Source of the DNA: a virus
IMG/VR virus record: IMGVR_UViG_3300015259_000005
Span: 1,244-65,243 of that record
Direction: 5' to 3' (one strand)
DNA length: 64,000 bases
Shown: in pieces, positions 12,315 to 28,501 of the stretch
Layout: each line of letters opens with the position of its first letter
Position numbering within the stretch: position 1 is the first letter of the stretch
Position numbers and translations under genes: made by a program
Notes under the pieces: generated by a model
What the model was told of the DNA's origin: nothing
Seen by the model: only the letters and a program-made list of their open reading frames with translations
Databases searched by the model: none

Positions 12315-12344
12315 AAGATAGCACGTCGTTCAGGCCGGTGTCAA
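12315..12344 (-). promoter_or_regulatory. sigma-70-type promoter, putative late-operon promoter
   Basis: TTGACA-18 nt-TATCTT with TGn extended -10; predicted start near 12308, at the 5' end of the structured region. Confidence 0.6.
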
Positions 12345-12387
12345 ATCCCGTCACCGCAGCCGAGGGCCGGGTGACGAAATTCGTCAA
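12338..12387. promoter_or_regulatory. two GTGACG-N5-CGTCAC-type sites
   Basis: GTGTCA-AATCC-CGTCAC (12338-12354, overlaps the -35) and GTGACG-AAATT-CGTCAA (12371-12387). Confidence 0.6.
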
Positions 12388-12866
12388 CGCCGGCGGCGGC
12401 TTAGGGCGGCGAGCAGGAGCAGTGCGGCGGCGAGCGCCGGGAGGCCGGGCTCGGGCAGAGGCTCGGCGGTGCCGTCCTCGTACTCGACGAATCCGATCTC
12501 TAAGGGCTCGGATCTGCTACAGATTCGCTGCATCTGGCAGCCGTTCTCGTCGCACACCTCTTGGAGCTCGAGCAGGCAATTCTGGCAAATTCCCCAGTTA
12601 AACCACGTAGTTGAGTGGTCGAACACCGCCATCAAGCCGGTCGGCCACTCCTCGACCGGCACGGGCTCGTCGCGGTCGGGCGCACGCTCGGACCACGGGC
12701 AGCACGAGACGAGGAACACCTCGCGGTCGGCGTAGTCGATCACGTCCTGGGGCAGATAGCACCCGACGCGCGGGTCGTACTCGCCGCCGGTCAGCAGCGG
12801 CGCGGCGAGCAGCGCGACGGCGAGCGCGAGCGCGACGATCGGGGCACGAGCGCGGGCGGCCATCAC
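12384..12866 (-). CDS. PEP-CTERM sorting-signal protein, Cys-rich
   Basis: N-terminal signal peptide; C-terminal LPEPGLPALAAALLLLAALSRRRR (PEP + TM + Arg tail). Confidence 0.8.
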   Translation of the reverse strand: MMAARARAPIVALALAVALLAAPLLTGGEYDPRVGCYLPQDVIDYADREVFLVSCCPWSERAPDRDEPVPVEEWPTGLMAVFDHSTTWFNWGICQNCLLELQEVCDENGCQMQRICSRSEPLEIGFVEYEDGTAEPLPEPGLPALAAALLLLAALSRRRR

Positions 12867-13093
12867 ATACGAGCTCCGGGTGGTCCTGGGACGTTCGGCC
12901 GGAGTGTAGCAGATCCGCGGGGCCCGGCGCTACCTCGACCCGAGCCAGCGGCCGGCGAAGTGCCCGAGGAGCCCGAGCACGGCGCCGGCGAGGCCGCAGA
13001 TGAACCCGGTGCGGCCGGGGCCGTCCGGGAGCAGCATGAGCGCGGCGCCGGGCACGAGGGCGAGCGCGAACAGCAGCGAGAGCGGGAGGGGCT

Positions 13094-13486
13094 TCACCAG
13101 TTGCTCGGGATGCCGTCGGTGCGGCGGCCGATCGGGCGCTCGTCGGGGTCCGGGCGCTCGAGCTCGCGCTGCGGGCGCTCGTCCCAGAGCCGCTGCCCCG
13201 CGGTGATCAGATCGTTCGCGCACGGCGCGTTCATCGCCCCGAGCGTGTGGCCCGCTTCGCGCACGCCGCGCCCGATCACGTTCAGCCGCCAGCGCTCGTC
13301 CGCGTCCACGTACCCGATCGCTTCGTCGATCTCGTGCTCGGCCCAGCGCAGCACCGCGCGGATCGCCGCGCGCCGTGCGAGGCCGGCCTTCGACATGCGC
13401 CGCGTGCGCGACGACTGCGCGCGCCGCGCCGCGCGGATCCGGCGCAGCAGATCGTACATCTCGACGCCCGACATGGGCTCTTTCAT
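13094..13486 (-). CDS. hypothetical protein
   Basis: 130 aa; ATGA coupling with the upstream ORF. Confidence 0.5.
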   Translation of the reverse strand: MKEPMSGVEMYDLLRRIRAARRAQSSRTRRMSKAGLARRAAIRAVLRWAEHEIDEAIGYVDADERWRLNVIGRGVREAGHTLGAMNAPCANDLITAGQRLWDERPQRELERPDPDERPIGRRTDGIPSNW

Positions 13487-13756
13487 CGCTTGGGCCCTCC
13501 GTTGAGCGCGATAGTGATGCCGCGCGTTAGTTCGTCGACCGCGTGCGTGTCCCAGTCCTCCCAGGATTGGAACGCGCGACCCTGCCGGTCGTCACGCATC
13601 TCGTCGTACGCGCGCTTCACGATCTCGCGAAGGTCGTTGCTCGGCGGGTTCACGGGCAACCCCCGAACCACGCGCCGATCGCGATCCCGATCAGGAACGC
13701 CGCGAGCTCGCCGTCCGTTCCGTCGAGCACGTCCCACCACGGGCGCTTCGGCGCGC

Positions 13757-13993
13757 TCATTTGATCGCCTTCCATTGGTCGGTGTCCGTGCGCTCGAAGA
13801 CGCGCGCCCGGTTCTGCCGCCCGCGCAGCGACTCGTACTCCGCGAGCGCGCGGGCGCGGTCGTTGGTCTGGAATACGAGCGCGCGGCCGTAGATGTTGGC
13901 GCTCTTCACGGTCACGGCGTACAGGTGCCCGCCGACCGCCCAGCGCAGCGCGCTCTCGTCGTTCTTCCCGATCGCGTGTTCGACGTGGGGCAT
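13757..13993 (-). CDS. hypothetical protein
   Basis: 78 aa; GGAGG RBS inside the ligase 3' end. Confidence 0.55.
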   Translation of the reverse strand: MPHVEHAIGKNDESALRWAVGGHLYAVTVKSANIYGRALVFQTNDRARALAEYESLRGRQNRARVFERTDTDQWKAIK

Positions 13994-13994
13994 G

Positions 13995-14885
13995 TCAGTC
14001 CTCCCGAAACGCCTTGAAGCCGGGGAACCGCGGCGCGTTGAGCACGCCGTGGGGCTGGTACTTGAACGTCACCGTGCGCCCGACAAGCGCTTCGCGCCCG
14101 ATCCACAACGTCTCGCGCTCGGCCGCGGTCAGCACGCCGGGCGCGCAACGCACCTCGACGCCAGGGAACGCCGGGCACTCGAGCACGAAGCCGCCTAGCG
14201 TGTTCTTGCCGCTCTTGCCGGCCTTCGCGCTCGAGCGCTTCGTGCGCCCGAGCGCGTCACGCTCCGCGACGTTGCCGTTGTGCTGGCCCTCGTACACCGA
14301 GACGATGGTGCCCTCGGCGTCCTGCCAGCGCTTCACCTTGAGCAGCCCGCCCTCGCGCGTCGTGGAGCGCCCGAACTTGTACCGGCCCTCCGGGTTGCGG
14401 AGCATCATGCCCTCATAGCCCGCTTCGACTGCGCAGTGCTCGAAGTAGTCCGCGCCCGCGGCGTCGCGCACCTCTTGGTGGAACACCATCTTGATCCCGG
14501 GCAGGTTCGCGTTTGCGACCTTCGCGCGCGCCGTCTCGAGACGCTCGCGGAACGGCGCGAGCGGCGTGATCCAGTGGTCCACGTGGTCGAACACGTAGAA
14601 CATGGCCGCGTCCGCGGCGCCGTTCTCACGCATCACCGCGCTCGTGCTGTGCTGCATCGCGTTCGGGTGCGTCGGGTCGCCGCCGATCAACTCACCATCG
14701 AGCCCGAGCAGCCGCGGGTCCGAGAGCGCCGCGGCGAGCGCCCGATTCGGGATCGGGAGCAGCTTGCGCGTGACCGGGCCGTCCGGCGTGATGATGCAGC
14801 GGATCCCGTCCAGCTTCACCGAAGCGAGCTTCGGGTACGTGAGCGTGTCGTCTGCCTTGCCTGCCAGCATGGGTTTGAACGCCAT
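13995..14885 (-). CDS. ATP-dependent DNA ligase
   Basis: Motif I KLDGIR, III LDGEL, IIIa FYVFD, IV EGMMLR, V LLKVK, VI PRFP. Confidence 0.95.
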   Translation of the reverse strand: MAFKPMLAGKADDTLTYPKLASVKLDGIRCIITPDGPVTRKLLPIPNRALAAALSDPRLLGLDGELIGGDPTHPNAMQHSTSAVMRENGAADAAMFYVFDHVDHWITPLAPFRERLETARAKVANANLPGIKMVFHQEVRDAAGADYFEHCAVEAGYEGMMLRNPEGRYKFGRSTTREGGLLKVKRWQDAEGTIVSVYEGQHNGNVAERDALGRTKRSSAKAGKSGKNTLGGFVLECPAFPGVEVRCAPGVLTAAERETLWIGREALVGRTVTFKYQPHGVLNAPRFPGFKAFRED

Positions 14886-14886
14886 G

Positions 14887-15507
14887 TTAGGCGTCCATCT
14901 CGATCATCTCTTCGCCGTCCGGGTCGCGCGGCAGACCGAACTCGTCGACCAGCCGGCGGGACATCGAGATGATGTACTCGTCGTTCATCGTGCTCACCAG
15001 CTTGACCGTGCTCTTGATCCGCTCGGTCGTCTTCGTCGGGCGCGTGAGCTTCACGTGCGGGTAGGGCCCGAGATCGCTCGCGATCGACATGAGCTCGTGG
15101 AGCAGGCGCGCGCCGGGCGTCGTCGCGGTCCACGGCTTCTCGAGCCCGACCGCGCGGGCCGCCTTCACGAACTCGCCCTTGTGCTTCTGATCGGTGCCGA
15201 CCGCGGCGTGGACCATCTCGTGCAGCAGCGTCGCGAGCACGGCGATTACGTCGTCGAGCTCCGGCGAGATGAACACGTGGTGGGTCTGCCCGTCGGCCGC
15301 GCAGCCGCGCGACCAGCACTCGCCGATCCGCTTGCGGCCGCCCTTCGGAAAGCCGGTGCTCACCGCGAGCGCCGTCAGCCCGAGCGGGAAGTCGGGGACG
15401 TAGCGCTCGAGCAGCACGTTCAGAGAGAGCGCCGCCTCGCGCAGCCACGCCTCGCGGGTGTGGTGAAGGAAGGGCGACGTGATCGGTGCGTCGGTTGCGT
15501 CGTTCAT
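14887..15507 (-). CDS. SprT-like zinc metallopeptidase
   Basis: TRE.WL...IGECW...FISP...LLHEMVHA...HKGEF. Confidence 0.75.
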   Translation of the reverse strand: MNDATDAPITSPFLHHTREAWLREAALSLNVLLERYVPDFPLGLTALAVSTGFPKGGRKRIGECWSRGCAADGQTHHVFISPELDDVIAVLATLLHEMVHAAVGTDQKHKGEFVKAARAVGLEKPWTATTPGARLLHELMSIASDLGPYPHVKLTRPTKTTERIKSTVKLVSTMNDEYIISMSRRLVDEFGLPRDPDGEEMIEMDA

Positions 15508-15776
15508 CGGGTGACCTCGTACTCCCAGAGGCCGCTCACCGCGGAGCGGCGCCGTTTGTTCACCGTGTAGCTCCCGAAGCGCGGCTTCCGCAAGTGGCGA
15601 AGCTGCGCGGACACCGACGCGGGCGGATCGCCGGTCGCCGCGGAGATTTCGGGCAGGCTGTGGTAGCCGGGGTGCCCGATCATGAAATCGCGGATGCGGT
15701 TCATCTGGGTGCGCACTCGGCGGCCGTCGATCTGCTCGTCGTACGCCGGCCCGAAGGTCGAGCTAGCCGCGGACAT
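15504..15776 (-). CDS. winged-HTH DNA-binding protein
   Basis: SLPEISAATGDPPASVSAQLRHLRK..FG...V.KR....GLWEY. Confidence 0.7.
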   Translation of the reverse strand: MSAASSTFGPAYDEQIDGRRVRTQMNRIRDFMIGHPGYHSLPEISAATGDPPASVSAQLRHLRKPRFGSYTVNKRRRSAVSGLWEYEVTR

Positions 15777-15948
15777 TGAGCTCGACCTCGAGCCGCTCGG
15801 CGCCCACGTTCAGGGCGGCGAAGGCGTCGTGGATGTCGGTCAGCGCGGCGTCGCGGTGCTCGTCGCGCTGCGGGCGCTGGATCACGCTGCGGGCGGACTC
15901 GAGCGCGCGACGGATCGTCCGTTCGGCCCGGTCGGTGAGGATTTGCAT
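15763..15948 (-). CDS. hypothetical protein
   Basis: 61 aa; AGGAG RBS. Confidence 0.55.
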   Translation of the reverse strand: MQILTDRAERTIRRALESARSVIQRPQRDEHRDAALTDIHDAFAALNVGAERLEVELNVRG

Positions 15949-15996
15949 GAGGGCTCCTGTGAGGGTGTGGGAGACGTATCGGCCGGCACGAACGGA

Positions 15997-16025
15997 ACTT
16001 TAGCGCTCGGCAGGGTCGGATGCCA
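15997..16025 (-). promoter_or_regulatory. sigma-70-like promoter
   Basis: TGGCAT-17-TAAAGT; CGCTAAAGTTC shared with the promoter at 28474-28501. Confidence 0.5.
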
Positions 16026-16089
16026 CAGTCGGCTAAGTAGTCGGTTCGCCTCGGGAAGTGTCTCCCAGAATCACCCGTTTTTCTGACAG

Positions 16090-16825
16090 CCTGTTAGGCA
16101 GCGGGTGCCGAGATTTGTCACTTACCGAAAAACGGGAAGTGCCCAAAAACGTAGGCCGAATTTGGCGTTACGTGGGCGCAGCGCGCCGAGTTGCGTTTTA
16201 GTTGCCTACCCCCGGTGTTAGGCGGGTGTTAGGCCGCACTAACAGCAACTAACAGGCAAGACGATTTCCCTAGTAATACCACACACTTAGCTAGCCTTAC
16301 CCACCTAACACACTAACTAACACACTCGCTAGGTACTGGCCTACGCCTAACACCCTCTACAGCTACCTAACCCCCTGTATCTAGTGACGTTTTCCGTCAC
16401 TTCACCCCTACACAGTAGCGGGAGGCTACGCGCAGCGGTATGCGCCTAGTTGCACATTGCGTCAGTGAGGGTTTCGTGAGTGATTCCGTAGGGTTAGGGG
16501 TTGTATAGGGGGGTAGCGTTAGCGGGTTTTCTAGCGCTCGCTGCGCTGCGCGCCTACATAGCCACATAGTGGCTAACGCTGCCACCCCGAGGCGGGAGGC
16601 AACATATACCCCGAAGGGTGCGCGCTAGCGGCGCTTTTCCCCTTCGCTATCCACTAGACCACTAGTAGCCACATACTCCTATAGTAGGTGTGGGGATAGG
16701 GGTACTACATACCCGCTAGCTCTACGTTTCCAGCCCTCTCTATATAGGTATATGTGGCTATAGTGTCATTCTCTGCTATATCAAGGGGTTAACGTGGCTA
16801 TCTGCTAGTGGCCTAGTAGTGGCAC
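16090..16825. repeat. non-coding repeat-rich region (origin and/or terminus or injection-stop candidate)
   Basis: About 10 TGTTAG/CTAAC(A) copies at 16092-16371; opposing TAGCCAC/CCACTAG and GTGGCTA/TAGTGGC copies at 16559-16823 around TATATAGGTATAT; perfect GTGACG-TTTTC-CGTCAC at 16384-16400. Confidence 0.65.
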
Positions 16826-17374
16826 CTCTGGCAAACCCGAGGCGGACGGTTAGCCGATCCGAGCGCGTGCGCGCGTCCGCCCATCGGGCAAAACGGCAAG
16901 CGCCCGACGCGCATACTCGGCGCGTCGGGCGCTAACCCGTTTCGGACGATCGGGCGCTAGCTCGCGCCGCACCCCCGAGCCGTACAGCGGCGCGCGGAGA
17001 GTGCAACCGCGACGCGCGCCGCATCCGAGCGGCGCGGGTATGTGTGCCCCGACGCGCTGCCGCACGTCGCGCACGCGACGCGGAACCCACCCGGCACGGG
17101 CACTACGGCGCGGGTGCCGCAAACGAAGCGGGCGGCGGCCGTCACAGCGGCTCGCCCGACGCGATCGCGGCCGACTCCCGCGCGTCCGCGTCCGCGTCGG
17201 CGCAATACTGCGCGGCGAGCGCGTGCGACCCCCGAGCGGCGCACCGATCGGCCGCCCGATAGCCGGCGGCAGCGGAGCGCGCGAGCCGATCGGCGCGAGC
17301 GTAGGCGGCCGTGCTTCGCTCCGCGGCGATTGCGAGCGGAACCCACGCGCGCGGGTTGGCGCAGCGTCCGCCGC

Positions 17375-17755
17375 TCACTTCGCGCCCTCCGACGCGATCG
17401 CGAGCCCTACACCGCAACCGCCCGCGTCGGGATGGCACACGGCTACAGTGCCGTCTGTTTCGCGCGCTGCGCGCTCCGCTGTGAAAGCGTGAACGGCGAG
17501 CGCGCCGCAAGACGGGCAGCGGACGGGCAACCCTGCGACACACTCGCGCAGCGGCGGCGCTTCGCCGCACGCGCGCGCCACGTCCGCCGAGATTGCGGCG
17601 AGCACGCGCGCCCGATTGCCGCGGTACCCCTCCCCTTTCGCGATCGCGAGCGCGGAGCGGCGGCGCGATAGCCGTAGCCCTTTCGCTTCCATCGCGAGCG
17701 CGGAGCGCAGCGCAGCGAAACGCGCGAAGCGGATAGCCTCGGGGGTGTCCAGCAT
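17375..17755 (-). CDS. hypothetical protein with C-terminal Zn ribbon
   Basis: ALAMEAKGLRLSRRRSA..; CPSC...CHPDAGGCG. Confidence 0.55.
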   Translation of the reverse strand: MLDTPEAIRFARFAALRSALAMEAKGLRLSRRRSALAIAKGEGYRGNRARVLAAISADVARACGEAPPLRECVAGLPVRCPSCGALAVHAFTAERAARETDGTVAVCHPDAGGCGVGLAIASEGAK

Positions 17756-18217
17756 GATTCCGCCGCCGCTCACTTTTCGCACCCGAAGCAACGGCAGTAC
17801 CCGTGCGGTTGCGGCCGTGCCATCGCGCGCACAGCGGCGGCAGCGTGCAAGTAGGCGTCCGCCGCGCCGCGCCGATAACCCGCGTCCTCGGGATCGCCGT
17901 TATCCGCGGCGCGGCGCATCGCTGCGCCCTCGCCGTCGATCCATTTGGCAGCGGCAAGAATTGCCGCCGCGCCCTCGCCGTCGAATTGAACGGGCACGGC
18001 TACGCCCCCACTGCGCGGCGCGGCTCGCGGATCCCGAGCGCTCGCGCCCGATCGGCCGCCGCGTCGGCGCGCGCCGCGTCCAGCAGGCGAAACGCGCGCG
18101 ACTCTTCCGCGCGCCGCATGCGGCGCGTAGCGCTGCCGATCGGGGCCAGCCCTACCAGCGCACCCGAAAGCATCGCGATACGCGCGCAGCGCTCCAGTAG
18201 TGAGATTGAGCGGCCCA

Positions 18218-18307
18218 CTACAGCGCACCTACCACGCGCGCGAGTGCCAGCGCGGAACCCGTGAGCGAAGCGGCGAACCCGAGGACGGAGACGATTCGGT
18301 CGAACAT
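18218..18307 (-). CDS. 29-aa hydrophobic peptide
   Basis: MFDRIVSVLGFAASLTGSALALARVVGAL; AAAGGA RBS; too short for the ORF track. Confidence 0.5.
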   Translation of the reverse strand: MFDRIVSVLGFAASLTGSALALARVVGAL

Positions 18308-18340
18308 GGCTAGACGTTTCCTTTCGTACTGGATCGGGGG

Positions 18341-18430
18341 TTAGAGGCCGGCAACCGTTGCGACGTTGACCAGCGCGTAGAACATGACACCCGCGAACCC
18401 GAGGACCAGCGCCGAGATTGCGTAACCCAT
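18341..18430 (-). CDS. 29-aa hydrophobic peptide
   Basis: MGYAISALVLGFAGVMFYALVNVATVAGL; AAGGGG RBS; first ORF after a sigma-54 promoter. Confidence 0.55.
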   Translation of the reverse strand: MGYAISALVLGFAGVMFYALVNVATVAGL

Positions 18431-18464
18431 TTTCGTTCCCCTTTGTTTGTTCGGACGTGACTAC

Positions 18465-18485
18465 CCTACTGCAACCCGTGTGCCA
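18465..18485 (-). promoter_or_regulatory. sigma-54 (-24/-12) promoter P3
   Basis: TGGCACACGGGTTGCAGTAGG matches TGGCAC-N5-TTGCW; paired sites at 18545-18561 and 18569-18585. Confidence 0.85.
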
Positions 18486-18552
18486 CGGGCGCGGAGCGCG
18501 GAGCGCGCGCCGTAGCCTATAGTTGCGCACTAGCGGACCTTTCGGTGACGTT

Positions 18553-18897
18553 TTACGGCGTCACCCTAGCGCCGTTTTGCGTCACTCGGCGCGAGCGCTC
18601 GCGCGCCGCCTCCCGCAAGTAGCCGGCCGCCGCAGCGTAGCGCGCAGCGTTCCCCGCGTGGATACTCGCCGCGCCGCAAAGGTCCGAGCGCAGCACGCGC
18701 AGCGCGTCGCGCGCGCTCCGCTCCGCGTGGTAGAGTGCCCACGCGGCGGCGCGTCGCAGCGCGTAGGCGGAACCCGGCACGCGCTCGCCGTCCAGCGTAG
18801 CACCCGCGAGCCGTAGCGCGTCTAGCTCGGGGCGTCCGGCGCATGCTGCCATTGCTAGCGCGTGCTCGCCGTCCGAAAGCGGAACAAAGCGCCGCAT
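18553..18897 (-). CDS. hypothetical protein
   Basis: MRRFVPLSDGEHALAMAAC..; TAATG coupling. Confidence 0.5.
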   Translation of the reverse strand: MRRFVPLSDGEHALAMAACAGRPELDALRLAGATLDGERVPGSAYALRRAAAWALYHAERSARDALRVLRSDLCGAASIHAGNAARYAAAAGYLREAARERSRRVTQNGARVTP

Positions 18898-19127
18898 TAG
18901 CTCGCGTCCTCCCGCCAATACTTCCACGGCGAGCGCTGCGCGTTCCACCGATCGAGCAACCGCAAAAACGCTAGCTCCGATGCCTCGGGGTGCGTTGCGT
19001 AGGTGAGGCGTCCGCTCGGGATATGCAACCGCGCGAAGCGATAGAGCGTTAGGCCACTGCGCGCGAGCCGCGCGCGGTACTCGTCTACCGTTTCCACGTC
19101 CGGCGCGGACGGGTGTGCGCGTGCCAT
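18897..19127 (-). CDS. hypothetical protein
   Basis: 76 aa; TAATG coupling. Confidence 0.55.
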   Translation of the reverse strand: MARAHPSAPDVETVDEYRARLARSGLTLYRFARLHIPSGRLTYATHPEASELAFLRLLDRWNAQRSPWKYWREDAS

Positions 19128-19321
19128 TAGTCGGCCCTCCCCTCTGATAGCGGCATGTCGCCGTTAGGGAAGCACGCGCGCACAAACCGAACCTCGCAAA
19201 AACGCGGGTTGAATCGGTGGCACACGTCCGCGATACCCGAGGCTACCTCTAGCCGCTCGGAGTCGGTTAGGGGCAGCGCCGCGACCATTTCGGCGAACGC
19301 CTCGAAGTGTCGGCGCGTCAT
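19127..19321 (-). CDS. conserved small phage protein
   Basis: MTRRHF...NPRF..VRF..AC pattern seen in many phage early genes. Confidence 0.6.
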   Translation of the reverse strand: MTRRHFEAFAEMVAALPLTDSERLEVASGIADVCHRFNPRFCEVRFVRACFPNGDMPLSEGRAD

Positions 19322-19590
19322 TATCGCGACCCCTCGAAATCGTCGCACGCGCGGCGGAACATATCGTAATCCGTCAACCCGTCCGCGTTATTTTCGACTA
19401 CTGCGGCCCACCCGCTATCGCCAAACTCGCAACCGTCGCCGCCGCCCATTTCGCCGCAATCCTCGGGGTCCGAGGCGTCGCCCGCTTTCGCTTTCGCGAT
19501 CGCGTCCGCCTCGGTGTCCGCCTCTACCTCGTAACGGAATTTCCGGTACTCGGTACACTCTTGCATTTCGTAGACGAAAAATCGCGCCAC
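19321..19590 (-). CDS. small acidic protein
   Basis: YEVEADTEADAIAKA motif; D/E-rich. Confidence 0.55.
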   Translation of the reverse strand: MARFFVYEMQECTEYRKFRYEVEADTEADAIAKAKAGDASDPEDCGEMGGGDGCEFGDSGWAAVVENNADGLTDYDMFRRACDDFEGSR

Positions 19591-19711
19591 TACTCTACCC
19601 CTTTCGCTAGTCCGGGGATACACACGATTACGACGATAGACGCGACTAGCAGCGCGTCCGCGCCTAGCGATACCCCCCAATAGAGTACCGCGAGCACACT
19701 TCCGACGCGGA

Positions 19712-20053
19712 CTAGAATCGGCAGAGTGTGCGATCCGTCGCGGCAGCGTCCGCGATCCACTCGCGAAACTCCGCGGATAGTCCGCGCCCCTTGCGCGCAG
19801 CGTCCGCTATCGGTGTGCCGTTTTCGTCCATCACAGTTACGGCGCTTCCGATCCCGCCCGACAAGCGATAGAAGCGCCGCCGCTCCGCGCCGTCGCCGTA
19901 GACTACATACCCGTCTAGGTAATAGGTACGCTCGCCGTCGCGCGTCGCTACTACCTTCGCCCGCAACCCGAGCGGCGAAACGTCCGCCCGCGAGCGCAGC
20001 GCGTCCATATCGGATAACGCTTGATTGAGTGCCAACCCGTACGCTTTTACCAT
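19712..20053 (-). CDS. hypothetical protein
   Basis: 113 aa ORF in operon order. Confidence 0.5.
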   Translation of the reverse strand: MVKAYGLALNQALSDMDALRSRADVSPLGLRAKVVATRDGERTYYLDGYVVYGDGAERRRFYRLSGGIGSAVTVMDENGTPIADAARKGRGLSAEFREWIADAAATDRTLCRF

Positions 20054-20056
20054 AGG

Positions 20057-21019
20057 CTACCGTTTCCACCTTTCCACTTCCTGCGGCGTTATGCCGTAGT
20101 GCAAGAGAATATCCGCGATGATTTCGGGTTCCGATTCCGCGAGCCGTAGTAGCCGGTAATAGTCGTCACCCGATCCGGCGGGAGTGCCCCACCCCGAAAC
20201 GGTTTCCCACTTCCGCGCCGCGTCACCTTTAGGCCACTGGCCCCAATCGTCGCCCCACTCGGGATCCGCTTTCGGATCGCGCGCGACGGGCAGCGCCGAA
20301 ACGTCTAGGCGCATTAGTCGCGGCAGTAGCCACAACATAAAACCTACGTCTAGCGTTTCCTTCGCGCTGTGCGCGTGCTCGTAACCTACGCTTAGGTTGC
20401 TGCACTCGGGGATAAGCTCGGCATAATTCGCCGTATCGGTGAATAGTCCCGACTCGTCCGGCTCGAAATCGCCGCCTAGCGCGTCGGCGAGCGCACCCGC
20501 GAAAGTGTCCGACGCGCAGCGCGCACCCTGATAGGTGATAACCGAGTCGAACCCCTTTCGGTCAAGCGCGATCGCGTAGCGGATCCCGTCCAATAGCTCG
20601 GGGGTTTCCTCTGCTATGTAGGTGGATCCGATCCCGCCGATTTCCTCGCCGCGGTGGAAGATATATAGCCCTTCCACTTCCGCGCGGATCATTTCGGACA
20701 TTAGCCAAACTCCCGCGCTATCGTCCGCCCCGAGGCAAGACGATTGCGAGTCGCGCGCTAGTTTGATTTTCCCCGCCTCTACCCGGACGTTTTGCCGTCC
20801 ACCTTTCCCGCTGTGTACCGTATCGGTGTGGCACGACCAAAGCACGGGCGCGGATCCGATACGCTTGATTAGGTTCCCCGCGCCGTCAATCTCGCACCCG
20901 AGCGGAGCTAGGAAGCGTTTGATAAATTCCACTTCCGCGCGCGATCCCGCCGGCCGCGAGTAGGTGAGCATATCCAGCAAGCTCCGCGGAGTCTTTAGGG
21001 TGCGTTCGGTTTTGGGCAT
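20057..21019 (-). CDS. M28/M20-clan zinc peptidase
   Basis: CHTDTV, LGADDSAG, RGEEIG..GS, IALDRKG, TDTANY, NLSVGY..AHS..E. Confidence 0.85.
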   Translation of the reverse strand: MPKTERTLKTPRSLLDMLTYSRPAGSRAEVEFIKRFLAPLGCEIDGAGNLIKRIGSAPVLWSCHTDTVHSGKGGRQNVRVEAGKIKLARDSQSSCLGADDSAGVWLMSEMIRAEVEGLYIFHRGEEIGGIGSTYIAEETPELLDGIRYAIALDRKGFDSVITYQGARCASDTFAGALADALGGDFEPDESGLFTDTANYAELIPECSNLSVGYEHAHSAKETLDVGFMLWLLPRLMRLDVSALPVARDPKADPEWGDDWGQWPKGDAARKWETVSGWGTPAGSGDDYYRLLRLAESEPEIIADILLHYGITPQEVERWKR

Positions 21020-21020
21020 G

Positions 21021-22646
21021 TTAGTTATTCTCCGATTCGGTCGGGCACGAGCACGGGCAACCGTTCACACCGTAGGCGCACGGGGCGGGATCGGGCACGC
21101 GCTCGGGGAGCGGCGCGCGCTCGCGCCCTTCCATCGCGTCGCGCGCGTCCGCCACTGCGCGGCGCGTCGCGTCGATTAGCTCCGCGCGGGTTAGTTCGTC
21201 CGCGGCTAGCGTCCAGTCTATCGGGTGCGCGCCTAGCGCGTTCGCTGCGCGCGTCGCCGCGTCGCGATCGCCGCTATGGATTCCGGCGCTTAGTCCGCTC
21301 GCCGCGTGGGTGACTACAAACCGCCGCGACTCGGAAGCGTCCGAGCGCGTCGCGCGCGTTACCACTATTCCGGGGGTTTCGGTAGCCCACGCGCGGACGT
21401 ACTCGAAACTACCGGCCGTCGGGATAGGCTGGACTAGCGAGCATCGCGCCGGCGCGTCCGCGTCGCCCGACTCCTCGCCGTCCGCGTCCGCGTTCTCTTT
21501 TTCCTCCGACTCGGCGCAATTCTCGCAGTGCCCCGACTCGTTTACTTCGCCGTTAGGCCACCACTCGCCGCACGGCTCGCAGTGGGTATAATTCGACTCG
21601 GCGCAATCGCTGCAAACCGTATCGCCGTCCATGTCGGTAATCGCGTCCTCCGACGGCACTAGCGCGTCACAGCGCGACCACGCACACCGCGCGTAGTGCG
21701 AGCTTACGCAATCGTCGCAAATGTCCATCCGCTGCGACGCGGAATAGTTGATATTGTCGCGGTGTACCGAGTTTTCGCAGTGGTCGCAGTGTCGGATAAT
21801 ATCGTCCGCGCAACCGCTACAAAGCGAGCCGTCGGCCGCCTCATAATAGGATAGTTCGTCCTCGGGGTATCGTTCGTCGCACGCGCTACAGGTTTCGTAG
21901 CTTGAACCTTCCGTCAATCCGTGGGTACACTGCGCGTTATACTCCCCGGATTCGTCGATTACTAGCCAATCGCCGTTATCCGAAACGGCGCTAACGTAGT
22001 CAATATACGGGCACACGTACTCGTAACCGTGTGCGATTTTTCGGATCCGCGCGCCCTCTATCGAACCTTCCGAGTAGCCGGCCGCGTGAAGCGCAGCGAT
22101 TAGGCGGGTTTCGTCGCCGTAGACGCGCGTATGTACTAGGTTGCTAGGCCACACAATCGCGCGCGCCGTTACTTCGCCGTCGCGGCGGATATAGGCTAGC
22201 TTCAAATCTGGGCCAGCGTAGACGCGCACGGGATGGCACGGCGACTCGTACGAGCTAGCGCTATGCGACATGCAAGAATTAGGGCCGCTAGTGTAAATCT
22301 CTTCCCACTCGTCCGCGGTTTCGGCTAGCAATAGCTCGGGGGATTCGTTCTCCGCGGCGAAACGTCCGGCCCACTCGCGCACAGCGTCGGGATCCAGCGC
22401 CGACACGAAACGCGCGAGATAGCGTCCGGGTTTCATAGCCGTTTGACGATCGCGCGCCCCTTTGTCCGCGTTCTCGGTAAACGCAATCTGTGCGCCGTGC
22501 TTGACCGATGCGTGCGCGAAGTGGTCGGCGAGCGGCGCACCTTCCGCGGTTAGCGCCGTCCACCACTCTTCCGCGTGCCACGGTACGGGTTTGTACTCGC
22601 CGCACGCAAACCGCGCGCGTTCGCGCTCGCGCCAATCGTCCGACAT
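21021..22646 (-). CDS. large protein with tandem Cys-x2-Cys repeats
   Basis: 541 aa; MKPGRYL..., SCMS, ARAIVW, RVYG, CPYID N-terminal domain, then about 8 CxxC units and an acidic linker. Confidence 0.7.
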   Translation of the reverse strand: MSDDWRERERARFACGEYKPVPWHAEEWWTALTAEGAPLADHFAHASVKHGAQIAFTENADKGARDRQTAMKPGRYLARFVSALDPDAVREWAGRFAAENESPELLLAETADEWEEIYTSGPNSCMSHSASSYESPCHPVRVYAGPDLKLAYIRRDGEVTARAIVWPSNLVHTRVYGDETRLIAALHAAGYSEGSIEGARIRKIAHGYEYVCPYIDYVSAVSDNGDWLVIDESGEYNAQCTHGLTEGSSYETCSACDERYPEDELSYYEAADGSLCSGCADDIIRHCDHCENSVHRDNINYSASQRMDICDDCVSSHYARCAWSRCDALVPSEDAITDMDGDTVCSDCAESNYTHCEPCGEWWPNGEVNESGHCENCAESEEKENADADGEESGDADAPARCSLVQPIPTAGSFEYVRAWATETPGIVVTRATRSDASESRRFVVTHAASGLSAGIHSGDRDAATRAANALGAHPIDWTLAADELTRAELIDATRRAVADARDAMEGRERAPLPERVPDPAPCAYGVNGCPCSCPTESENN

Positions 22647-22649
22647 GCC

Positions 22650-22874
22650 CTAGCCCTCCCCGCGCGTTCGGCGGTTGAATCGGAAACCCGGACGATTCTC
22701 GGGGCGAGCGCGCAGCGCGCGCCGCTCCGCGGCTCGCACGTCACGCGCGCGGATCCGCGCCGAGATTGCGTCTAGCCGCGCACACTGCGCGGGCGTAAGC
22801 TCCGCGGCAGCGGCGGCTATCGCCGCGTCTAGCCGCGCGTTCTCTTCGGGCGTTAGCCCCTTGCCGTTCGTCAT
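22650..22874 (-). CDS. hypothetical protein with internal LTP..xARLDA duplication
   Basis: LTPEENARLDA / LTPAQCARLDA; GGAGG RBS. Confidence 0.55.
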   Translation of the reverse strand: MTNGKGLTPEENARLDAAIAAAAAELTPAQCARLDAISARIRARDVRAAERRALRARPENRPGFRFNRRTRGEG

Positions 22875-22881
22875 AGCCTCC

Positions 22882-22902
22882 CCTACTGCAACCCGTGTGC
22901 CA
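22882..22902 (-). promoter_or_regulatory. sigma-54 promoter P2
   Basis: Same 21-mer as P1 and P3; paired sites at 22942-22958 and 22964-22980. Confidence 0.85.
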
Positions 22903-22954
22903 GCGCTGCCGCGCGCGCTCCGCGCGCCGCGCCCCTTTCGGGTGCCGTTAGTCG

Positions 22955-23191
22955 TCACTTCCGCCCGCAAATTGCGGCACCTTCCGCGCGCTGCGCCGCT
23001 ACCATCGCGGCGCGCGAGCCGAACCCGCGCCAATCGCGCCCGACGGCGCGGCGGCGCTTCCCTTCGCGCGACTCGGCGCGCGACTCCGCGCGGCACAGCG
23101 CGCACACCCGGCGCAGCGCGACGCAATCACACTCTACGGCGACGCGCTCCGCGTCGCGCAAGCTCCGAGGCGCGTATACGAGCTTAGCCAC
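22955..23191 (-). CDS. small Cys-containing protein
   Basis: ECDC...VCALC; GGGAGG RBS. Confidence 0.45.
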   Translation of the reverse strand: MAKLVYAPRSLRDAERVAVECDCVALRRVCALCRAESRAESREGKRRRAVGRDWRGFGSRAAMVAAQRAEGAAICGRK

Positions 23192-23193
23192 GG

Positions 23194-23379
23194 CTAGCGC
23201 CCTCCCGCGTTCGGGCGCGCGTACTGTAGCGGCGCTTTCACTTCCGACGCGCTCTCCGCGTCCGGGTTGAGGCGCAGCGCTTCCATTAGCGCCGCGATGA
23301 TATTCGGCGCTTCCACTTCCACGGTTGCGTAGGGAAGGTCCGCCAGCGCCGTCCGGTAGAGCTTGATTGCGTGCTTCAC
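23194..23379 (-). CDS. hypothetical protein, first gene of the island
   Basis: VKHAIKLY..VEVEAPNIIAAL..; AAAGGGG RBS downstream of P1. Confidence 0.55.
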   Translation of the reverse strand: MKHAIKLYRTALADLPYATVEVEAPNIIAALMEALRLNPDAESASEVKAPLQYARPNAGGR

Positions 23380-23409
23380 TTTGGGAACCCCTTTCGGTGT
23401 GTGCCGGAT

Positions 23410-23430
23410 CCTACTGCAACCCGTGTGCCA
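23410..23430 (-). promoter_or_regulatory. sigma-54 promoter P1
   Basis: TGGCACACGGGTTGCAGTAGG; perfect GTGACG-CGCGC-CGTCAC at 23480-23496 and a partial site at 23503-23519. Confidence 0.85.
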
Positions 23431-24294
23431 GCGCTGCGGCGCGCGCTCCGCTCGCCGTAGCCCTCTGCGACACTTGAAAGTGACGCGCGCCGTCACTTCG
23501 CGCCCGCAAATTGCGTCACCCGCAACGGCTCGCGAAATGTTCTACCAGAATAGAACGCGCGAGGCAAGAAAATTCTATTCTGATAGAAATTCGCGCCGAG
23601 GCGGACGTTTCGCGCGCGGCGCGAATTGCCAGCGCACGCGCACGCAACTAGCGCCGCAGCGGAATTTTCGCGCCGCAGCGGAGTTGCCGGCGCGTGCGCA
23701 CGCAACTAGCACCCGTGGGGGTTGCCGGCTCATGCGGCGGCAACTAGCGCGCAACTCGGCGCAGGAGCTCCCCCTTACACCCTTATCACCCAAAATTTTC
23801 GCTACACGCATATCACCCAAATGCGGGCGAGGCGTGCGAGGCGCGGCTAGCGGCGACGAGCTCGTCGTAGCGCACGCTGGCGCTTCGCTCGAGCTCGTCG
23901 CTTCGCTGCGCTGCCAGAGCTCGGCGAGCGCGGCGACATTGTCGACCGCGGTGCAGCGCCGACCGTCGGCGGATCGCCAGACGGCTTTTCGATCATCGAA
24001 TCAACGCGGCAAAGCCAGCGCTGAAACTCAGTGATCGGTTCGATCGCGGAGCCGAACGTCTCGGTCGAGTGCCTTGCTGAAATCGGCGGCGAACTCCCGG
24101 ACGAATTCGAGGTTCACGATCACTGTGTTGACGACGATGCTGGCCTGCGGCGAAACAGCGAGGGCAAGCGATCGCAGAAGTTGTCGGTTCTCTTCGATCG
24201 CAGCGGCCAGGACTGCTGCCTTGGCTGCGTGATCTTTCCGGTTGTGGTTGCCATGGATCCTCCCAGCGCGCCAGCGCGCCCATCAAATGGAGTT

Positions 24295-24350
24295 TGAAAT
24301 TGGAAAATGAAATGCCCCGTCGCCCAATTTTAGGTTAGGCGACGGGGCGG
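24295..24350 (-). terminator. intrinsic terminator of the 28.4->24.35 kb operon
   Basis: GCCCCGTCGCC/GGCGACGGGGC stem followed on the minus strand by ATTTCATTTTCC. Confidence 0.7.
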
Positions 24351-24352
24351 GG

Positions 24353-24595
24353 TCAGTAGCCGGCCGCGATCACGTCCCGACCGCGTTCGGTCGGGGCGAA
24401 GAACGTGACGGGCGTAGCCTTGCAGCCCACGTTCAGTCGGCGCGCGGCGATCAGGTTGCGCTTGCGCAGCGCGGTGATCGTCGAGGCCCGGAACGTGGCC
24501 TGAGCGTCTTCCTTGCGGAAGCCACGGCGGCCCTGGCCGGTCGACGCCGCGGCGATCTGCCACAGCGCGACCCGCATTGCATCGGTCAATCGCAT
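24353..24595 (-). CDS. small basic winged-helix-like protein
   Basis: MRLTDAM...STITALRKRNLI...TERGR. Confidence 0.5.
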   Translation of the reverse strand: MRLTDAMRVALWQIAAASTGQGRRGFRKEDAQATFRASTITALRKRNLIAARRLNVGCKATPVTFFAPTERGRDVIAAGY

Positions 24596-24642
24596 ACTCG
24601 TTCTCCCTGTGCTATTCGCCGTTCATCGAACGGGAATCCGTT

Positions 24643-25046: not shown

Positions 25047-25074
25047 TGGGGGCCTCCATCGAATCGGATTTGGG

Positions 25075-25305: not shown

Positions 25306-25400
25306 TGGACATCCCCAGGATGATTAGGCCGAGCACGACGCCCATGGCCCCCACGAAGTCCCAATCGACCGCCGAAATCCATTCGCCTAGTCGCCTCATT

Positions 25401-26000: not shown

Positions 26001-26221
26001 AGTAGGTCGCTCCAGTCGTCTTCCGCCGGGGCAGCGGGCGCCGACAAGTCTGCGTCGAGCCAGACCTCGACGCGGGGTTTCCGGTTCGCAGCGCGCGCCT
26101 TGCACGCCTCGAAGTCCCGACACGCCGGACGCGGTTGCGCCGCCGTGGTGAATCGCAGCAGGCCGTCCCAGACGCGCGAGAGCGCGCCGCACCGCGAGCA
26201 GCGATAGCAGTGGGTACTCAA
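25997..26221 (-). CDS. small Zn-finger protein
   Basis: HCYRCSRC...C.DFEAC. Confidence 0.4.
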   Translation of the reverse strand: MSTHCYRCSRCGALSRVWDGLLRFTTAAQPRPACRDFEACKARAANRKPRVEVWLDADLSAPAAPAEDDWSDLL

Positions 26222-26670
26222 ACGGCGGCCTGCTGAGCTCGTCGGCGCGCGACGAACCGCCGCCGCTTCTCGCGCCACTTCGCCCGCTTGGCCTCGAGCG
26301 GGAGACGATCGCGCACAGCCTCGGCCGCGATTGCGAACGCCTCGGGCGTGTCGTGGTCAACGAGAAAGTGCTGCCGCTCGTGTTCGCCGTCGGTGACGAA
26401 GATCGGTGCGCGCATGTCACGCGAACGGCGGATCAGCCGCAGCGCGTCGATGCCGACCCAGCGGAACGTGCGCCGCAGGTACTTCGGCGGCACGCTCGCG
26501 CCCTCTGCGTGCGCCTTGTGGTCCTGTCGCAGCAAAGCGAGCACGATGTCGCTCGCGAGATCCTCGACATCTTCGTGGCCCGGACGCAGAAGCTCCGTCG
26601 CGGTGAGGATCGCGCGCCGGCGCAAGTACATGGCGCGCTCGTCGGTGCCGAACTCGGCTAGGCGGTCCAA
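26218..26670 (-). CDS. ECF sigma region-2-like protein lacking an obvious region 4
   Basis: EDVEDLASDIVLALL...YLRR....IDALR...TPE; basic tail. Confidence 0.45.
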   Translation of the reverse strand: MDRLAEFGTDERAMYLRRRAILTATELLRPGHEDVEDLASDIVLALLRQDHKAHAEGASVPPKYLRRTFRWVGIDALRLIRRSRDMRAPIFVTDGEHERQHFLVDHDTPEAFAIAAEAVRDRLPLEAKRAKWREKRRRFVARRRAQQAAV

Positions 26671-26857
26671 ATCAGGTACCCCCAGTGGAAGATCGTGAAG
26701 AGCCAAAGGATCAGGAGCACCAGCCCCCAGTCGATGCGGGAGAAAAACCCCCGGCGAAATTTTTGCGCTTTCAGTTCGCTCGGCGTCTGGATTGAGGCCA
26801 CCAAAACTAGCAGCACCATCGCCACGCCGAAGTAGATCGCGTCCTTGACCCGGTTGG

Positions 26858-27142
26858 TCATAGGGTGATGTCCTCCATCGAACGCCTCCGCGTTCTCGGT
26901 TGCGAAACGGGGGGTGTCTTTGATCTGCGAAGGCAAGGCTCGCAGCGCGGGTCGTCGTCGTGCTCGTCGAGCAGGTGCGCGTACCACACCGGCCCGCGCG
27001 AGCCGTACCAAAGGGCCCGACCGCAGCAGCCGCAGCGACGATCCGGGTCGCGCGCCGGCGGGTTCCAGCCCGAGCCGCCGCACATGACGCAATCGCCGTC
27101 GTTCTTTCCGCCGCAGTGCTGGCAGTCGCTACCGCGAGCCAT
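26858..27142 (-). CDS. DnaJ-type Zn-binding small protein
   Basis: CQHCGG..CVMCGGSG..CGCCG. Confidence 0.5.
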   Translation of the reverse strand: MARGSDCQHCGGKNDGDCVMCGGSGWNPPARDPDRRCGCCGRALWYGSRGPVWYAHLLDEHDDDPRCEPCLRRSKTPPVSQPRTRRRSMEDITL

Positions 27143-27384
27143 GCGGCCTCCCGAGCAGCGCGACGTGGTGATCGCCGCCGGCGGGCCACGTGCGGAGAAT
27201 CGACCGCCGCTCGTGCGCGCCGCGGCGCGAGTCCGGGTAGTAGAACACCGCGGTGCGCGAGGAGACGATCGTCTGCCCCGGGACCGGGGCCGCAGCGGGC
27301 CACACGCCGTCGATCAGCTTGAAGCCGAACGGCAGCGCCCGCTCGCCCCGTCGCCCGATGTACCAGCGCAGAACGCGGAGCACT

Positions 27385-27555
27385 CTACGCCTTCGCGGCG
27401 CGCGCCGCGATCCGCTTGCGCTCCCGCTCGGCGCGGAAGCCGCCCTTGTCGAGCCGGGCGATCTGCCCCGCGTCGCCGCGCGCGTCGCGCGCCGTCTGTC
27501 GCTCGACGGCCTGCTCCTGGCGGGCCTTCGTGCGTCGGTGATGCCGTGTCGGCAT
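27385..27555 (-). CDS. small basic phage protein
   Basis: Read manually: MPTRHHRRTKARQEQA..RQ..QIARLD..AERERKRI; GGAGG RBS. Confidence 0.5.
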   Translation of the reverse strand: MPTRHHRRTKARQEQAVERQTARDARGDAGQIARLDKGGFRAERERKRIAARAAKA

Positions 27556-27556
27556 G

Positions 27557-27772
27557 TTAGTCGCCTCCCTGTAGTACGATCAGTCGGCTGTCGGCGTACC
27601 CCGCCGGCACCTTCGTGACCGTGCCGCCGCGGCGCAGATACTCGGCGAGCGTCTCGCGTCGCGTCGGCCTGTGCGTCCGCGGCTTCGGCAGCCGCGCCTC
27701 GAAGTTGGGGTTCAGATCGCCCTCGAGTGCTGCGCGGGCGAGATAGAGCTTGTCGAGGTTGCGCGGGATCAC
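27557..27772 (-). CDS. SutA-like RNA polymerase-binding peptide
   Basis: LAEYLRRGGTVTKVPAG resembles the SutA EFL..GG.V motif. Confidence 0.5.
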   Translation of the reverse strand: MIPRNLDKLYLARAALEGDLNPNFEARLPKPRTHRPTRRETLAEYLRRGGTVTKVPAGYADSRLIVLQGGD

Positions 27773-28419
27773 TGCTGGATCCCACGGTGCAGGAAGGGCC
27801 CGACGGCGCGGTCGCCGCCGTAGCTCTTCGCGCGGTAGCACTCGCGGTCGGCACGCGCGATCAGCGCCGGGGCCGTCTCTCCCACCTCGTGCGCGGCGCC
27901 GCCGATCGACACCGTGACGGGTGACGTGGTGCGGACGGCCTCTGCGATGCGGTCGCCGAGCGCGAGCAGCCCGAGCGGGCTTGTCTCGTCCACGATCACC
28001 ACGAACTCGTCGCCGCCGTAGCGGACCAGCACGTCGGGCGCGCGGAGGCAGGAGTGGATGGCGCGCGCCACCGCAGCCAGGGCCGTGTCCCCCGCGGGGT
28101 GGCCGTCCAGATCGTTGAGCGGCTTCAGCCCGTCCACGTCGATGAACAGGACGCCGGCAGCCTTGGGAGCTAGCGTGGGAGCGCCGCTGTTGCGCCGTAC
28201 GGAGCGCGCGAGGGCCAGCCCGAGCAGATCGTCCAGCCGGCCGCGCCCGAAGGCGCCAGTGAGCGGGCAGCGCGACAGGCGCGCCACCTCGGTCTGGGCG
28301 GTGGCGAGCGCTGACTCCAGGGAGCGGACGCGGCCCTCGAGCTCGCGGGTGTAGGCCGGGCTGTTGCGCTCGCCCTGCCGGTCGTATAGGCTCTGCTCGA
28401 ACATGATCGCCTCGGCCAT
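27769..28419 (-). CDS. diguanylate cyclase (GGDEF)
   Basis: N-terminal coiled coil, PLTG, DVDGLKPLND..GH..GD..L, RxxD I-site (RAPD), RYGGDEF, TVSIG, RAD..Y.AK..G. Confidence 0.93.
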   Translation of the reverse strand: MAEAIMFEQSLYDRQGERNSPAYTRELEGRVRSLESALATAQTEVARLSRCPLTGAFGRGRLDDLLGLALARSVRRNSGAPTLAPKAAGVLFIDVDGLKPLNDLDGHPAGDTALAAVARAIHSCLRAPDVLVRYGGDEFVVIVDETSPLGLLALGDRIAEAVRTTSPVTVSIGGAAHEVGETAPALIARADRECYRAKSYGGDRAVGPFLHRGIQQ

Positions 28420-28473
28420 CGAAGGACTCCTCTTCCGGTTGGTGCCCCCACTGTTCGGCGGGGTGACAGCAGA

Positions 28474-28501
28474 ACTTTAGCGGCGATCTTTCGTGGTGCC
28501 A
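28474..28501 (-). promoter_or_regulatory. sigma-70-like promoter for the GGDEF operon
   Basis: TGGCAC-16-TAAAGT; CGCTAAAGTTC shared with 15997-16025. Confidence 0.5.

Follow-up and report, generated by a model that had tools for sequence, protein, structure and literature searches.

Among the closest described systems is the control of pilA by PilS-PilR and sigma-54 (or of pilE by Nps/Npa in commensal Neisseria), where a -24/-12 promoter is preceded, as here, by an upstream site for a regulator of the NtrC family. The locus analysed in this work belongs to an uncultured virus, IMG/VR record IMGVR_UViG_3300015259_000005, and the whole stretch studied (the window, to which all positions refer) comprises 64,000 of the 65,243 bases of that record, whose completeness is estimated by CheckV at 100%. 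It contains three predicted sigma-54 promoters (P1-P3) reading into a block of phage genes (the island), palindromic sites of the GTGACG type upstream of them, and copies of the same site on a sigma-70-type promoter of the late genes. The bacterial pilin promoters found in the present analysis have the same palindrome and the same distance to the -24 element as the phage, and may resemble it in their tandem phased sites. By contrast, the module of the phage drives phage genes and not a pilin gene, the phage has neither the kinase nor the regulator, the published description of the Pseudomonas aeruginosa site differs from the phage site, and none of the pilin loci examined has anything comparable to the site on the sigma-70 late promoter.

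Other systems resemble the locus in single traits. In enteric bacteria, NtrC activates a sigma-54 promoter from upstream and represses a sigma-70 promoter through overlapping sites (glnAp2 and glnAp1). An activator-type site overlaps a sigma-70 -35 element in the phage as well (12338-12354), but there 6-11 kb separate the activating from the putative repressing sites, which belong to different loci, and repression is something that we infer. FleQ, FlrA and VpsR are enhancer-binding proteins (bEBPs) that respond to cyclic di-GMP (c-di-GMP) and act on both sigma-54 and sigma-70 promoters, as described in the part of PMC10333796 devoted to them, whereas the phage site is of the pilin-promoter type (the FleQ and VpsR boxes themselves were not scanned for). 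Among phages, Pseudomonas phage YuA (Yuavirus) is a pilus-dependent siphovirus (according to a passage in PMC11461919); its GenBank record describes three promoters as 'high activity, -24/-12 consensus sequence', and its gp44 is a short protein with a diguanylate cyclase domain (GenBank record; entry in PMC10333796). Its kinship to the phage is distant, with a few tail proteins at ~30-44% identity; the -24/-12 regions of YuA, situated in the midst of late structural genes, are poor matches to the consensus, and its four GTGACG-type matches all stand elsewhere.

Considering the sequence evidence as a whole, it seems probable to us that P1-P3 are genuine sigma-54 promoters dependent on a host bEBP, most likely PilR, that the same protein may hold the late genes down, and that a diguanylate cyclase encoded by the phage serves a separate function.

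Predicted sigma-54 promoters and their upstream sites

The 21-mer TGGCACACGGGTTGCAGTAGG occurs exactly three times in the window, always on the minus strand (18465, 22882 and 23410), and never in 100 shuffles, which bears out the three identical sigma-54 promoters of the original prediction. It contains the full sigma-54 consensus TGGCAC-N5-TTGCA, and the GG and GC doublets, 10 bp apart within TGGCAC-N5-TTGCW, are present as three exact copies of TGGCACACGGGTTGCA. Within the window, there is no further match to TGGCACNNNNNYTGCA with at most one mismatch. The three cores and the sites upstream of each are as follows:

23410-23430, minus strand: P1 core, TGGCAC-N5-TTGCA; predicted start at about 23404; heads the open reading frames (ORFs) 23379-23194 and 23191-22955
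23480-23496, no strand assigned: P1 proximal site GTGACGCGCGCCGTCAC, 0 mismatches, 49 nt upstream of TGGCAC
23503-23519, no strand assigned: P1 distal half-site, read on the minus strand as GTGACG-CAATTTGCGGG, with 23 bp between its start and that of the proximal site
22882-22902, minus strand: P2 core; predicted start at about 22876; ATG at 22874, 2 nt further on
22942-22958, no strand assigned: P2 proximal site, 1 mismatch, 39 nt upstream of TGGCAC
22964-22980, no strand assigned: P2 distal half-site, GTGCCG-CAATTTGCGGG, 22 bp start-to-start from the proximal site
18465-18485, minus strand: P3 core; predicted start at about 18459; heads two membrane peptides of 29 amino acids and downstream ORFs
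18545-18564, no strand assigned: P3 proximal site, the 20-bp variant GTGACG-N8-CGTCAC, 59 nt upstream of TGGCAC
18569-18585, no strand assigned: P3 distal site, 2 mismatches

Over 55 nt, P1 and P2 share 91% identity, and their upstream regions can be aligned, while P3 shares with them the core and the GC-rich spacer. A ribosome-binding site (RBS) and then an ORF follow the predicted start after 25 nt at P1 and 29 nt at P3. Behind P2 there are genes for proteins of 74, 541 and 320 amino acids, together with smaller ones. A GGAGG lies upstream of the predicted start of P2, and the 74-amino-acid ORF extends over 22874-22650; as its ATG would be so close to the start, with the GGAGG left outside the transcript, this ORF would either be translated leaderless or really be a 230-nt leader of the 541-amino-acid gene.

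Regarding the palindrome, the window has five sites that match GTGACGNNNNNCGTCAC with at most one mismatch, against 0.62 expected (0/100 shuffles reach five), and 17 with at most two, against 9.2 expected. By the ORF map, non-coding sequence makes up 16% of the window, and eight of these 17 are located in it (binomial p = 0.003). At P1-P3 the sites lie at the distance at which an enhancer is looked for, about 70-150 bp from the start with no -35/-10 at the same place: relative to the predicted start, their centres are at -84/-107 (P1), -74/-96 (P2) and -95/-118 (P3). It had been claimed that each promoter has two sites of the GTGACG-N5-CGTCAC type, 22-24 bp apart. The upstream position of the sites, with centres from -74 to -118, stands, but their form does so only in part (the distal ones of P1 and P2 are half-sites, and the proximal one of P3 has N8), and the spacing measured start-to-start is 21-23 bp.

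The context of the island also points to P1-P3. An intrinsic terminator closes the operon of the cyclase (GGDEF operon) just upstream of the island, and in 15800-24600 there is one weak sigma-70-like match, against 1.6 expected, which is not at P1-P3; consequently, P1-P3 would be the only recognisable promoters for the island. As to a phage RNA polymerase that might read the 21-mer, no match to PF00940 was obtained, but the control genomes gave no match either.

Upstream of the P1 enhancer, the region 23540-23751 carries an AT-rich inverted-repeat pair (TTCTACCAGAATAGAA / TTCTATTCTGATAGAA) and three 33-nt direct repeats, each with GTTGCC-N12-GCAAC. These repeats could be bending sites of the IHF type or sites of a second regulator.

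Counterparts of the module in bacteria and in other viruses

In a six-frame search of the window, neither a Sigma54_activat domain (PF00158) nor a sigma-54 DNA-binding domain nor HTH_8 was found, in agreement with the earlier statement that the phage encodes no sigma-54 activator. P1-P3 must, therefore, rely on a bEBP of the host. In order to see where else the arrangement occurs, one genome per prokaryotic species (~596 Gb) was scanned with a composite pattern consisting of a sigma-54 core, 32-62 nt and a palindrome made as degenerate as it is in P1, P2 and G006 (a viral fragment described below); ~8 chance matches are expected under uniform base composition. The scan gave 44 loci. In 19 of them the first downstream ORF encodes a type IV pilin, recognised by G-F-T-L-I-E among the 45 N-terminal amino acids, and three others look like pilins in the wrong reading frame; two of the pilins were confirmed by the TIGR02532 prepilin model. 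The loci span Betaproteobacteria (including three Rubrivivax), Lysobacteraceae, Holophagae/Acidobacteriota, Thermoanaerobaculia and metagenome-assembled genomes (MAGs) of Myxococcota type. Many share more than the pattern requires, namely AAGTGACG, an AT-rich centre, CGTCAC, CTGGCACG-N4-(C/T)TGCA and an RBS, and the ORF that follows this shared composite begins MKRVQQGFTLIELM... or MRRQKGFTLIELL.... When five of these genomes were searched in full, four matched, with the exact composite found once in each and the reversed control never.

The geometry is shared as well. In the pilin loci, the gap from the site to the -24 element falls into groups of 39-41, 51-53 and 59-61 nt, which differ by roughly one helical turn, and in the phage it measures 39 nt (P2), 49 nt (P1) and 59 nt (P3); additional upstream sites are present in 11 of the 19 pilin loci. 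This architecture, and its match to bacterial pilin promoters, is what the sequences contain. The gene adjoining the module codes for a REC-Sigma54_activat-HTH_8 regulator in two of the ten pilin loci tested. In Myxococcus and Geobacter, pilR and pilA are neighbours. Pilin genes of this type are activated by PilR and sigma-54, as stated in passages of PMC6058289, PMC11841059, PMC6528607 and PMC7170775. Since the same site and geometry stand before type IV pilin genes in many bacteria, the host activator is most likely PilR of the PilS-PilR pair and not a protein of the FleQ, VpsR or Nla24 type. Of the original proposal, then, a host bEBP acting from upstream sites is retained, given the sigma-54 promoters and the lack of a phage activator, but not the identity that had been suggested for it, as the pilin-type sites point to PilR.

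One other enhancer, the PrsR/PEP-CTERM box, was considered and rejected: the motif given in the relevant part of PMC1569441 holds TTTACA, while the phage sites are of the GTGACG type. In a homolog search, the PEP-CTERM-like protein of the phage had no match beyond itself. Two MAG contigs labelled Klebsiella pneumoniae (L094 and L119) carry high-GC loci of the pilR-pilA type with the module and look mis-binned.

The composite was also sought in IMG/VR, where it was found at 14 viral loci on 14 contigs. Several of these have two or three tandem TGTGACG-N5-CGTCACA sites before the sigma-54 core, at GC contents of 0.45-0.66. A pilin lies downstream of the module in none of the 14 loci, and none of the 14 records has a Sigma54_activat match over the cut-off (there is a single sub-threshold match, of 12.7 bits). 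The phage and the 14 contigs have no gene in common, except in G006 (L047), a T7-like fragment that encodes PolA and a primase-helicase of the T7 type. There, a homolog of the 541-amino-acid island gene (40% identity) is preceded by TGGCACAGCATCTGCA and by an enhancer that aligns by eye with those of P1 and P2. As promoter, enhancer and gene are all homologous, they have moved between unrelated phages as one unit.

Two broader interpretations of the viral promoters were discarded. There is no support for a conserved feature of the lineage, as its distant relatives (41% portal identity, low GC) have only matches that look intragenic and the close relatives G001 and G002 end short of the promoters; neither are they a general feature of the family of the 541-amino-acid protein, in which a TGGCAC-type promoter with an enhancer is found only at L047 out of 45 loci. 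Two other loci of this family (L060 and L073) have weak GGCAT..CTGC matches 1292 and 371 nt upstream. Separately, at positions 3411-3544 of the viral contig L143, a pair of divergent sigma-54 promoters has in common three palindromes, perfect or nearly so, that adjoin one another with a spacing of 20 bp; this would be a compact, bidirectional version of the module. At about 14400-14500 of the viral contig L134 (GC 0.45), the module precedes a protein with an N-terminus that resembles ArdC (anti-restriction) by eye, a hint that early anti-defence genes are under promoters of this kind.

The late promoter and the diguanylate cyclase

The sites that are not associated with P1-P3 are listed here together with the late promoter:

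12315-12344, minus strand: late sigma-70-type promoter TTGACA-18-TATCTT, which heads a structured leader and the packaging/head genes
12338-12354, no strand assigned: site overlapping the -35 of the late promoter, 2 mismatches; covers the TTGACA at 12344-12339; kept in the relatives G001 and G002
12371-12387, no strand assigned: second late-promoter site, 1 mismatch, 33 bp upstream of the first; spacing of 22 bp in G001 and G002
16105-16121, no strand assigned: weaker site in the non-coding repeat-rich region, 2 mismatches
16384-16400, no strand assigned: perfect palindrome in the same 0.9-kb region, 0 mismatches; homologous site TTGACAAATTCCGTCAC in G001

The recurrence of the palindrome at 12371, 16105 and 16384 and its overlap with the TTGACA of the late promoter had both been reported before, and both were recovered. 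The late promoter scores 10/12 with an upstream TG, against 0.0 expected, and is the only sigma-70-like match in its region. With a palindrome on its -35, one protein could activate the island and block the late genes. The part of the original prediction that assigns both effects to one host protein is thus made possible by the overlap, while the block itself is conjectured.

G001 and G002, two relatives with 77% portal identity that are both fragments, keep both late sites, the TTGACA and a TAnnnT -10 while the spacer sequence diverges. The distance between the two late sites is 33 bp in the phage and 22 bp in the relatives, that is, it differs by 11 bp or one helical turn, so that the sites stay on one face of the helix; the pairs at P1-P3, with half-sites and the N8 variant included, have their 21-23 bp. 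G001 also keeps the site corresponding to 16384. Conservation of this kind at the late promoter would be the pattern expected of functional protein-binding sites. Downstream of the promoter, the GC-rich leader of ~320 nt (11984-12306) is shared with G001 and G002 at a high level of conservation that includes long invariant stretches, which fits a functional RNA or an attenuator heading the late operon.

Operators of the lambda type are 17 bp long. Sites that lie on a sigma-70 -35 and in a non-coding repeat-rich region, and that are conserved in relatives, could also be operators of a DNA-binding phage protein, such as the 90-amino-acid product of 15504-15776, which looks basic and winged-helix-like by eye; the sigma-54 promoters would then use another host activator. 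We regard this as unlikely. Neither the 90-amino-acid protein nor the other small ORFs tested have a Pfam or PHROG match, and the suggestion that this helix-turn-helix candidate binds the sites found no support; moreover, the identical palindrome stands at the same distances before chromosomal pilin genes in several phyla that lack such a phage protein, and unrelated viral contigs share the site while sharing, apart from G006, no gene with the phage.

It may also be asked whether the modules have any role at all. The deviant codon composition of the island, the identical cores and the likeness of P1 and P2, which suggests a recent duplication, and the mobility of the module evident from the T7-like fragment are what would be seen if copies of a host pilin-type control region had arrived with an acquired island and been duplicated, as passengers that are silent or of no use in infection. 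However, each copy is correctly placed before ORFs in an island that is shielded by a terminator and has no other recognisable promoter, the late-promoter sites, which are not part of the island, have been retained in relatives together with their helical phasing, and the module recurs in 14 viral contigs. We consequently hold mere passengers to be quite improbable.

Returning to a host PilR that acts on both the island and the late promoter, a number of observations weigh against it. At the promoters themselves, searches for the exact 21-mer recovered fragments of the same phage and nothing else; the distal sites of P1 and P2 retain the left half alone (GTG(A/C)CG then CAATTTGCGGG), and the proximal spacer of P3 is 3 bp longer. 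P1-P3 have no phylogenetic footprint, because G001 and G002 are fragments that end before them. In the bacterial scan, 22 of the 44 loci were not called pilins, some of them resembling intragenic chance matches, and in eight of the ten loci tested the adjoining gene is not a regulator; the two adjoining regulators can be called only 'NtrC family', as NCBIfam has no PilR model. Two loci of Sphingomonadaceae (L097 and L098) have GTGCCG-N5-CGGCAC and a sigma-54 promoter before a FlgB-like gene, so that the motif class is not exclusive to pilin genes; a related class of half-sites may serve a flagellar activator there. In 200 further Burkholderiales genomes there was no exact composite match and no control match, which indicates that the strict pattern has a low sensitivity and sees a small part of any regulon. 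The PilR site of P. aeruginosa is given as TGT-N11-ACA in a passage of PMC8035640 and as NifA-like TGTN11AGA plus GTCT elements in one of PMC6058289, and GTGACG-N5-CGTCAC as a PilR site was not found in a literature search that left supplementary files outside it. Lastly, repression of the late promoter by the bound activator would be modelled purely on NtrC.

The original prediction had been that a host bEBP of the FleQ, VpsR or Nla24 type, able to bind c-di-GMP, activates the island while blocking the late promoter, and that c-di-GMP made by the phage flips this state. The phage does encode the enzyme, at the position given before:

27769-28419, minus strand: GGDEF diguanylate cyclase of 216 amino acids with a coiled-coil N-terminus; GGDEF and RxxD intact

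It matches PF00990 (E = 1.9e-24) and TIGR00254 (90.8 bits), and its translation has RYGGDEF, RAPD five residues upstream and DVDGLKPLND (the DxDxxKxxND block). With its Pfam match and its catalytic and I-site motifs, it looks catalytically competent. Apart from the enzyme, a c-di-GMP circuit has in its favour the presence of the site both at sigma-54 enhancers and on a sigma-70 -35, together with two published effects. In Myxococcus xanthus, a heterologous cyclase lowered pilA mRNA ~2.5-fold by an undefined route, and the authors note that NtrC-like regulators can be c-di-GMP effectors (both in the part of PMC4686200 that deals with pilA); in P. aeruginosa, high c-di-GMP induces PlzR, which blocks pilus assembly (a passage of PMC11461919). 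By contrast, the site matches the enhancers of pilin genes and not the flagellar or polysaccharide regulons of FleQ and VpsR, the cyclase belongs to a separate operon closed by a terminator, and the bEBPs listed as binding c-di-GMP in a table passage of PMC10333796 do not include PilR. A GGDEF domain, whose co-occurrence with the module across viruses had been anticipated, is absent from all 14 other viral records in which the module occurs, three of them at least 90% complete. No evidence links the cyclase to P1-P3, and the flip is speculation; the circuit as a whole strikes us as very unlikely. Because neither c-di-GMP route is linked to P1-P3 and the module goes without a cyclase in the 14 other records, in our view the enzyme has a function of its own, in host conversion or exclusion, and might have an indirect influence by way of PilS-PilR. 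It is more likely to act on pili or the cell surface than on promoters.

Genome context and consequences for infection

The gene layout was derived from a frame analysis based on the GC content of third codon positions (GC3) and from family scans; overall GC is ~66%. The late operon is long and leftward, running from near 12,340 through the terminase, portal and scaffold genes and then across the end of the record. The replication block is rightward, from 28,493, with a "DNA transfer" protein like A1 of T5 and a primase-helicase. Leftward genes from 28,419 to 12,384 fill the region between the two and include the GGDEF protein, the island, the non-coding repeat-rich stretch (16.0-16.9 kb) and a group with a ligase and an SprT-like gene. 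The remaining features are these:

704-1561, minus strand: scaffold gene, late operon
1597-3171, minus strand: portal gene, late operon
3175-5010, minus strand: terminase gene, late operon
17142-23379, minus strand: island genes behind P1-P3, roughly 6 kb, with GC3 below that of the rest of the genome
18430-18341 and 18307-18218, minus strand: ORFs of the two hydrophobic 29-amino-acid membrane peptides, the first products of P3
20057-21019, minus strand: M28/PepT-like peptidase, island
21021-22646, minus strand: 541-amino-acid protein behind P2, fold not recognised
24314-24348, minus strand: intrinsic terminator that closes the GGDEF operon, 14-bp stem and T run

The structural model of the 541-amino-acid protein has a mean predicted local distance difference test (pLDDT) score of 76.7 and is confident for residues 1-370; at E <= 0.001 it matched nothing in the PDB, and the weak matches beyond that threshold were GNAT/FemX-like and LIM-like. 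In members of its family, certain His and Cys residues are invariant and one half is made of Cys-rich repeats, and their 45 viral loci include many early regions of phages, among them Bradyrhizobium, Rhizobium and KP34-like Klebsiella phages. By eye, the 29-amino-acid peptides bear no resemblance to the N-terminal segment of pilins. Among 50,697 phage records, no named relatives of the window, L143 or L147 were found.

A minus-strand motif, GC-TAAAGT-TC, which holds a -10-like hexamer, is common to 15980-16000 and 28460-28480. Both the GGDEF operon and the 15948 operon, which read leftward, have it 45-60 nt upstream of their first gene, and TGGCA(C/T) lies 16-17 nt further upstream; G001 keeps TAAAGT with TTGCCA 16 nt upstream. 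This may be a promoter class for early or middle genes.

Phage early and accessory genes are normally thought to be read by the housekeeping sigma factor of the host or by a phage polymerase. According to the mechanism proposed here, P1-P3 would fire only when a host bEBP occupies the sites of the GTGACG-N5-CGTCAC type that precede the -24 element by 39-59 nt. This bEBP would most likely be PilR, the response regulator that switches on the gene of the major type IV pilin; bound at 12338 and 12371, it would cover the late -35 and keep the late genes down while the island is on. We infer the binding of PilR, its activating and repressing effects and the resulting timing from the arrangement of the sites. 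If the phage enters through type IV pili, every infectable cell would have active PilR, because production of the receptor needs it.

A further step, which we put forward tentatively and hold to be doubtful, is a two-way clock in which phosphorylated PilR of a piliated cell fires the island and sits on the late promoter until it is lost. Replicating phage DNA would multiply its nine or more sites per genome and titrate a scarce regulator; alternatively, island products or c-di-GMP made by the cyclase would block pilus assembly, so that pilin accumulates in the membrane and PilS dephosphorylates PilR, or both routes would operate. That pilin accumulated in the membrane makes the kinase dephosphorylate the regulator is a published model (outlined in parts of PMC6528607 and PMC6058289). 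If the clock were true, the choice of receptor, early expression, superinfection exclusion and the switch from early to late genes would be one coupled system.

The enhancer used by sigma-54 and PilR is known; what is new is the placing of phage genes under it and the conserved copies of its site on a late sigma-70 promoter, and no description of phage promoters dependent on PilR or sigma-54 was found in our literature search. A gene block controlled by sigma-54 and a pilus regulator would tie the phage programme to the very state in which the cell makes its probable receptor. As the module recurs in diverse phages, pilR and rpoN mutants classified as 'receptor' resistant may also be blocked after entry, that is, such mutations could act at two levels. 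The locus would, in addition, be a compact natural example of one regulator that activates one class of promoter and represses another, and its sequence signature may serve to predict pilus-dependent phages, and their host range, from metagenomes.

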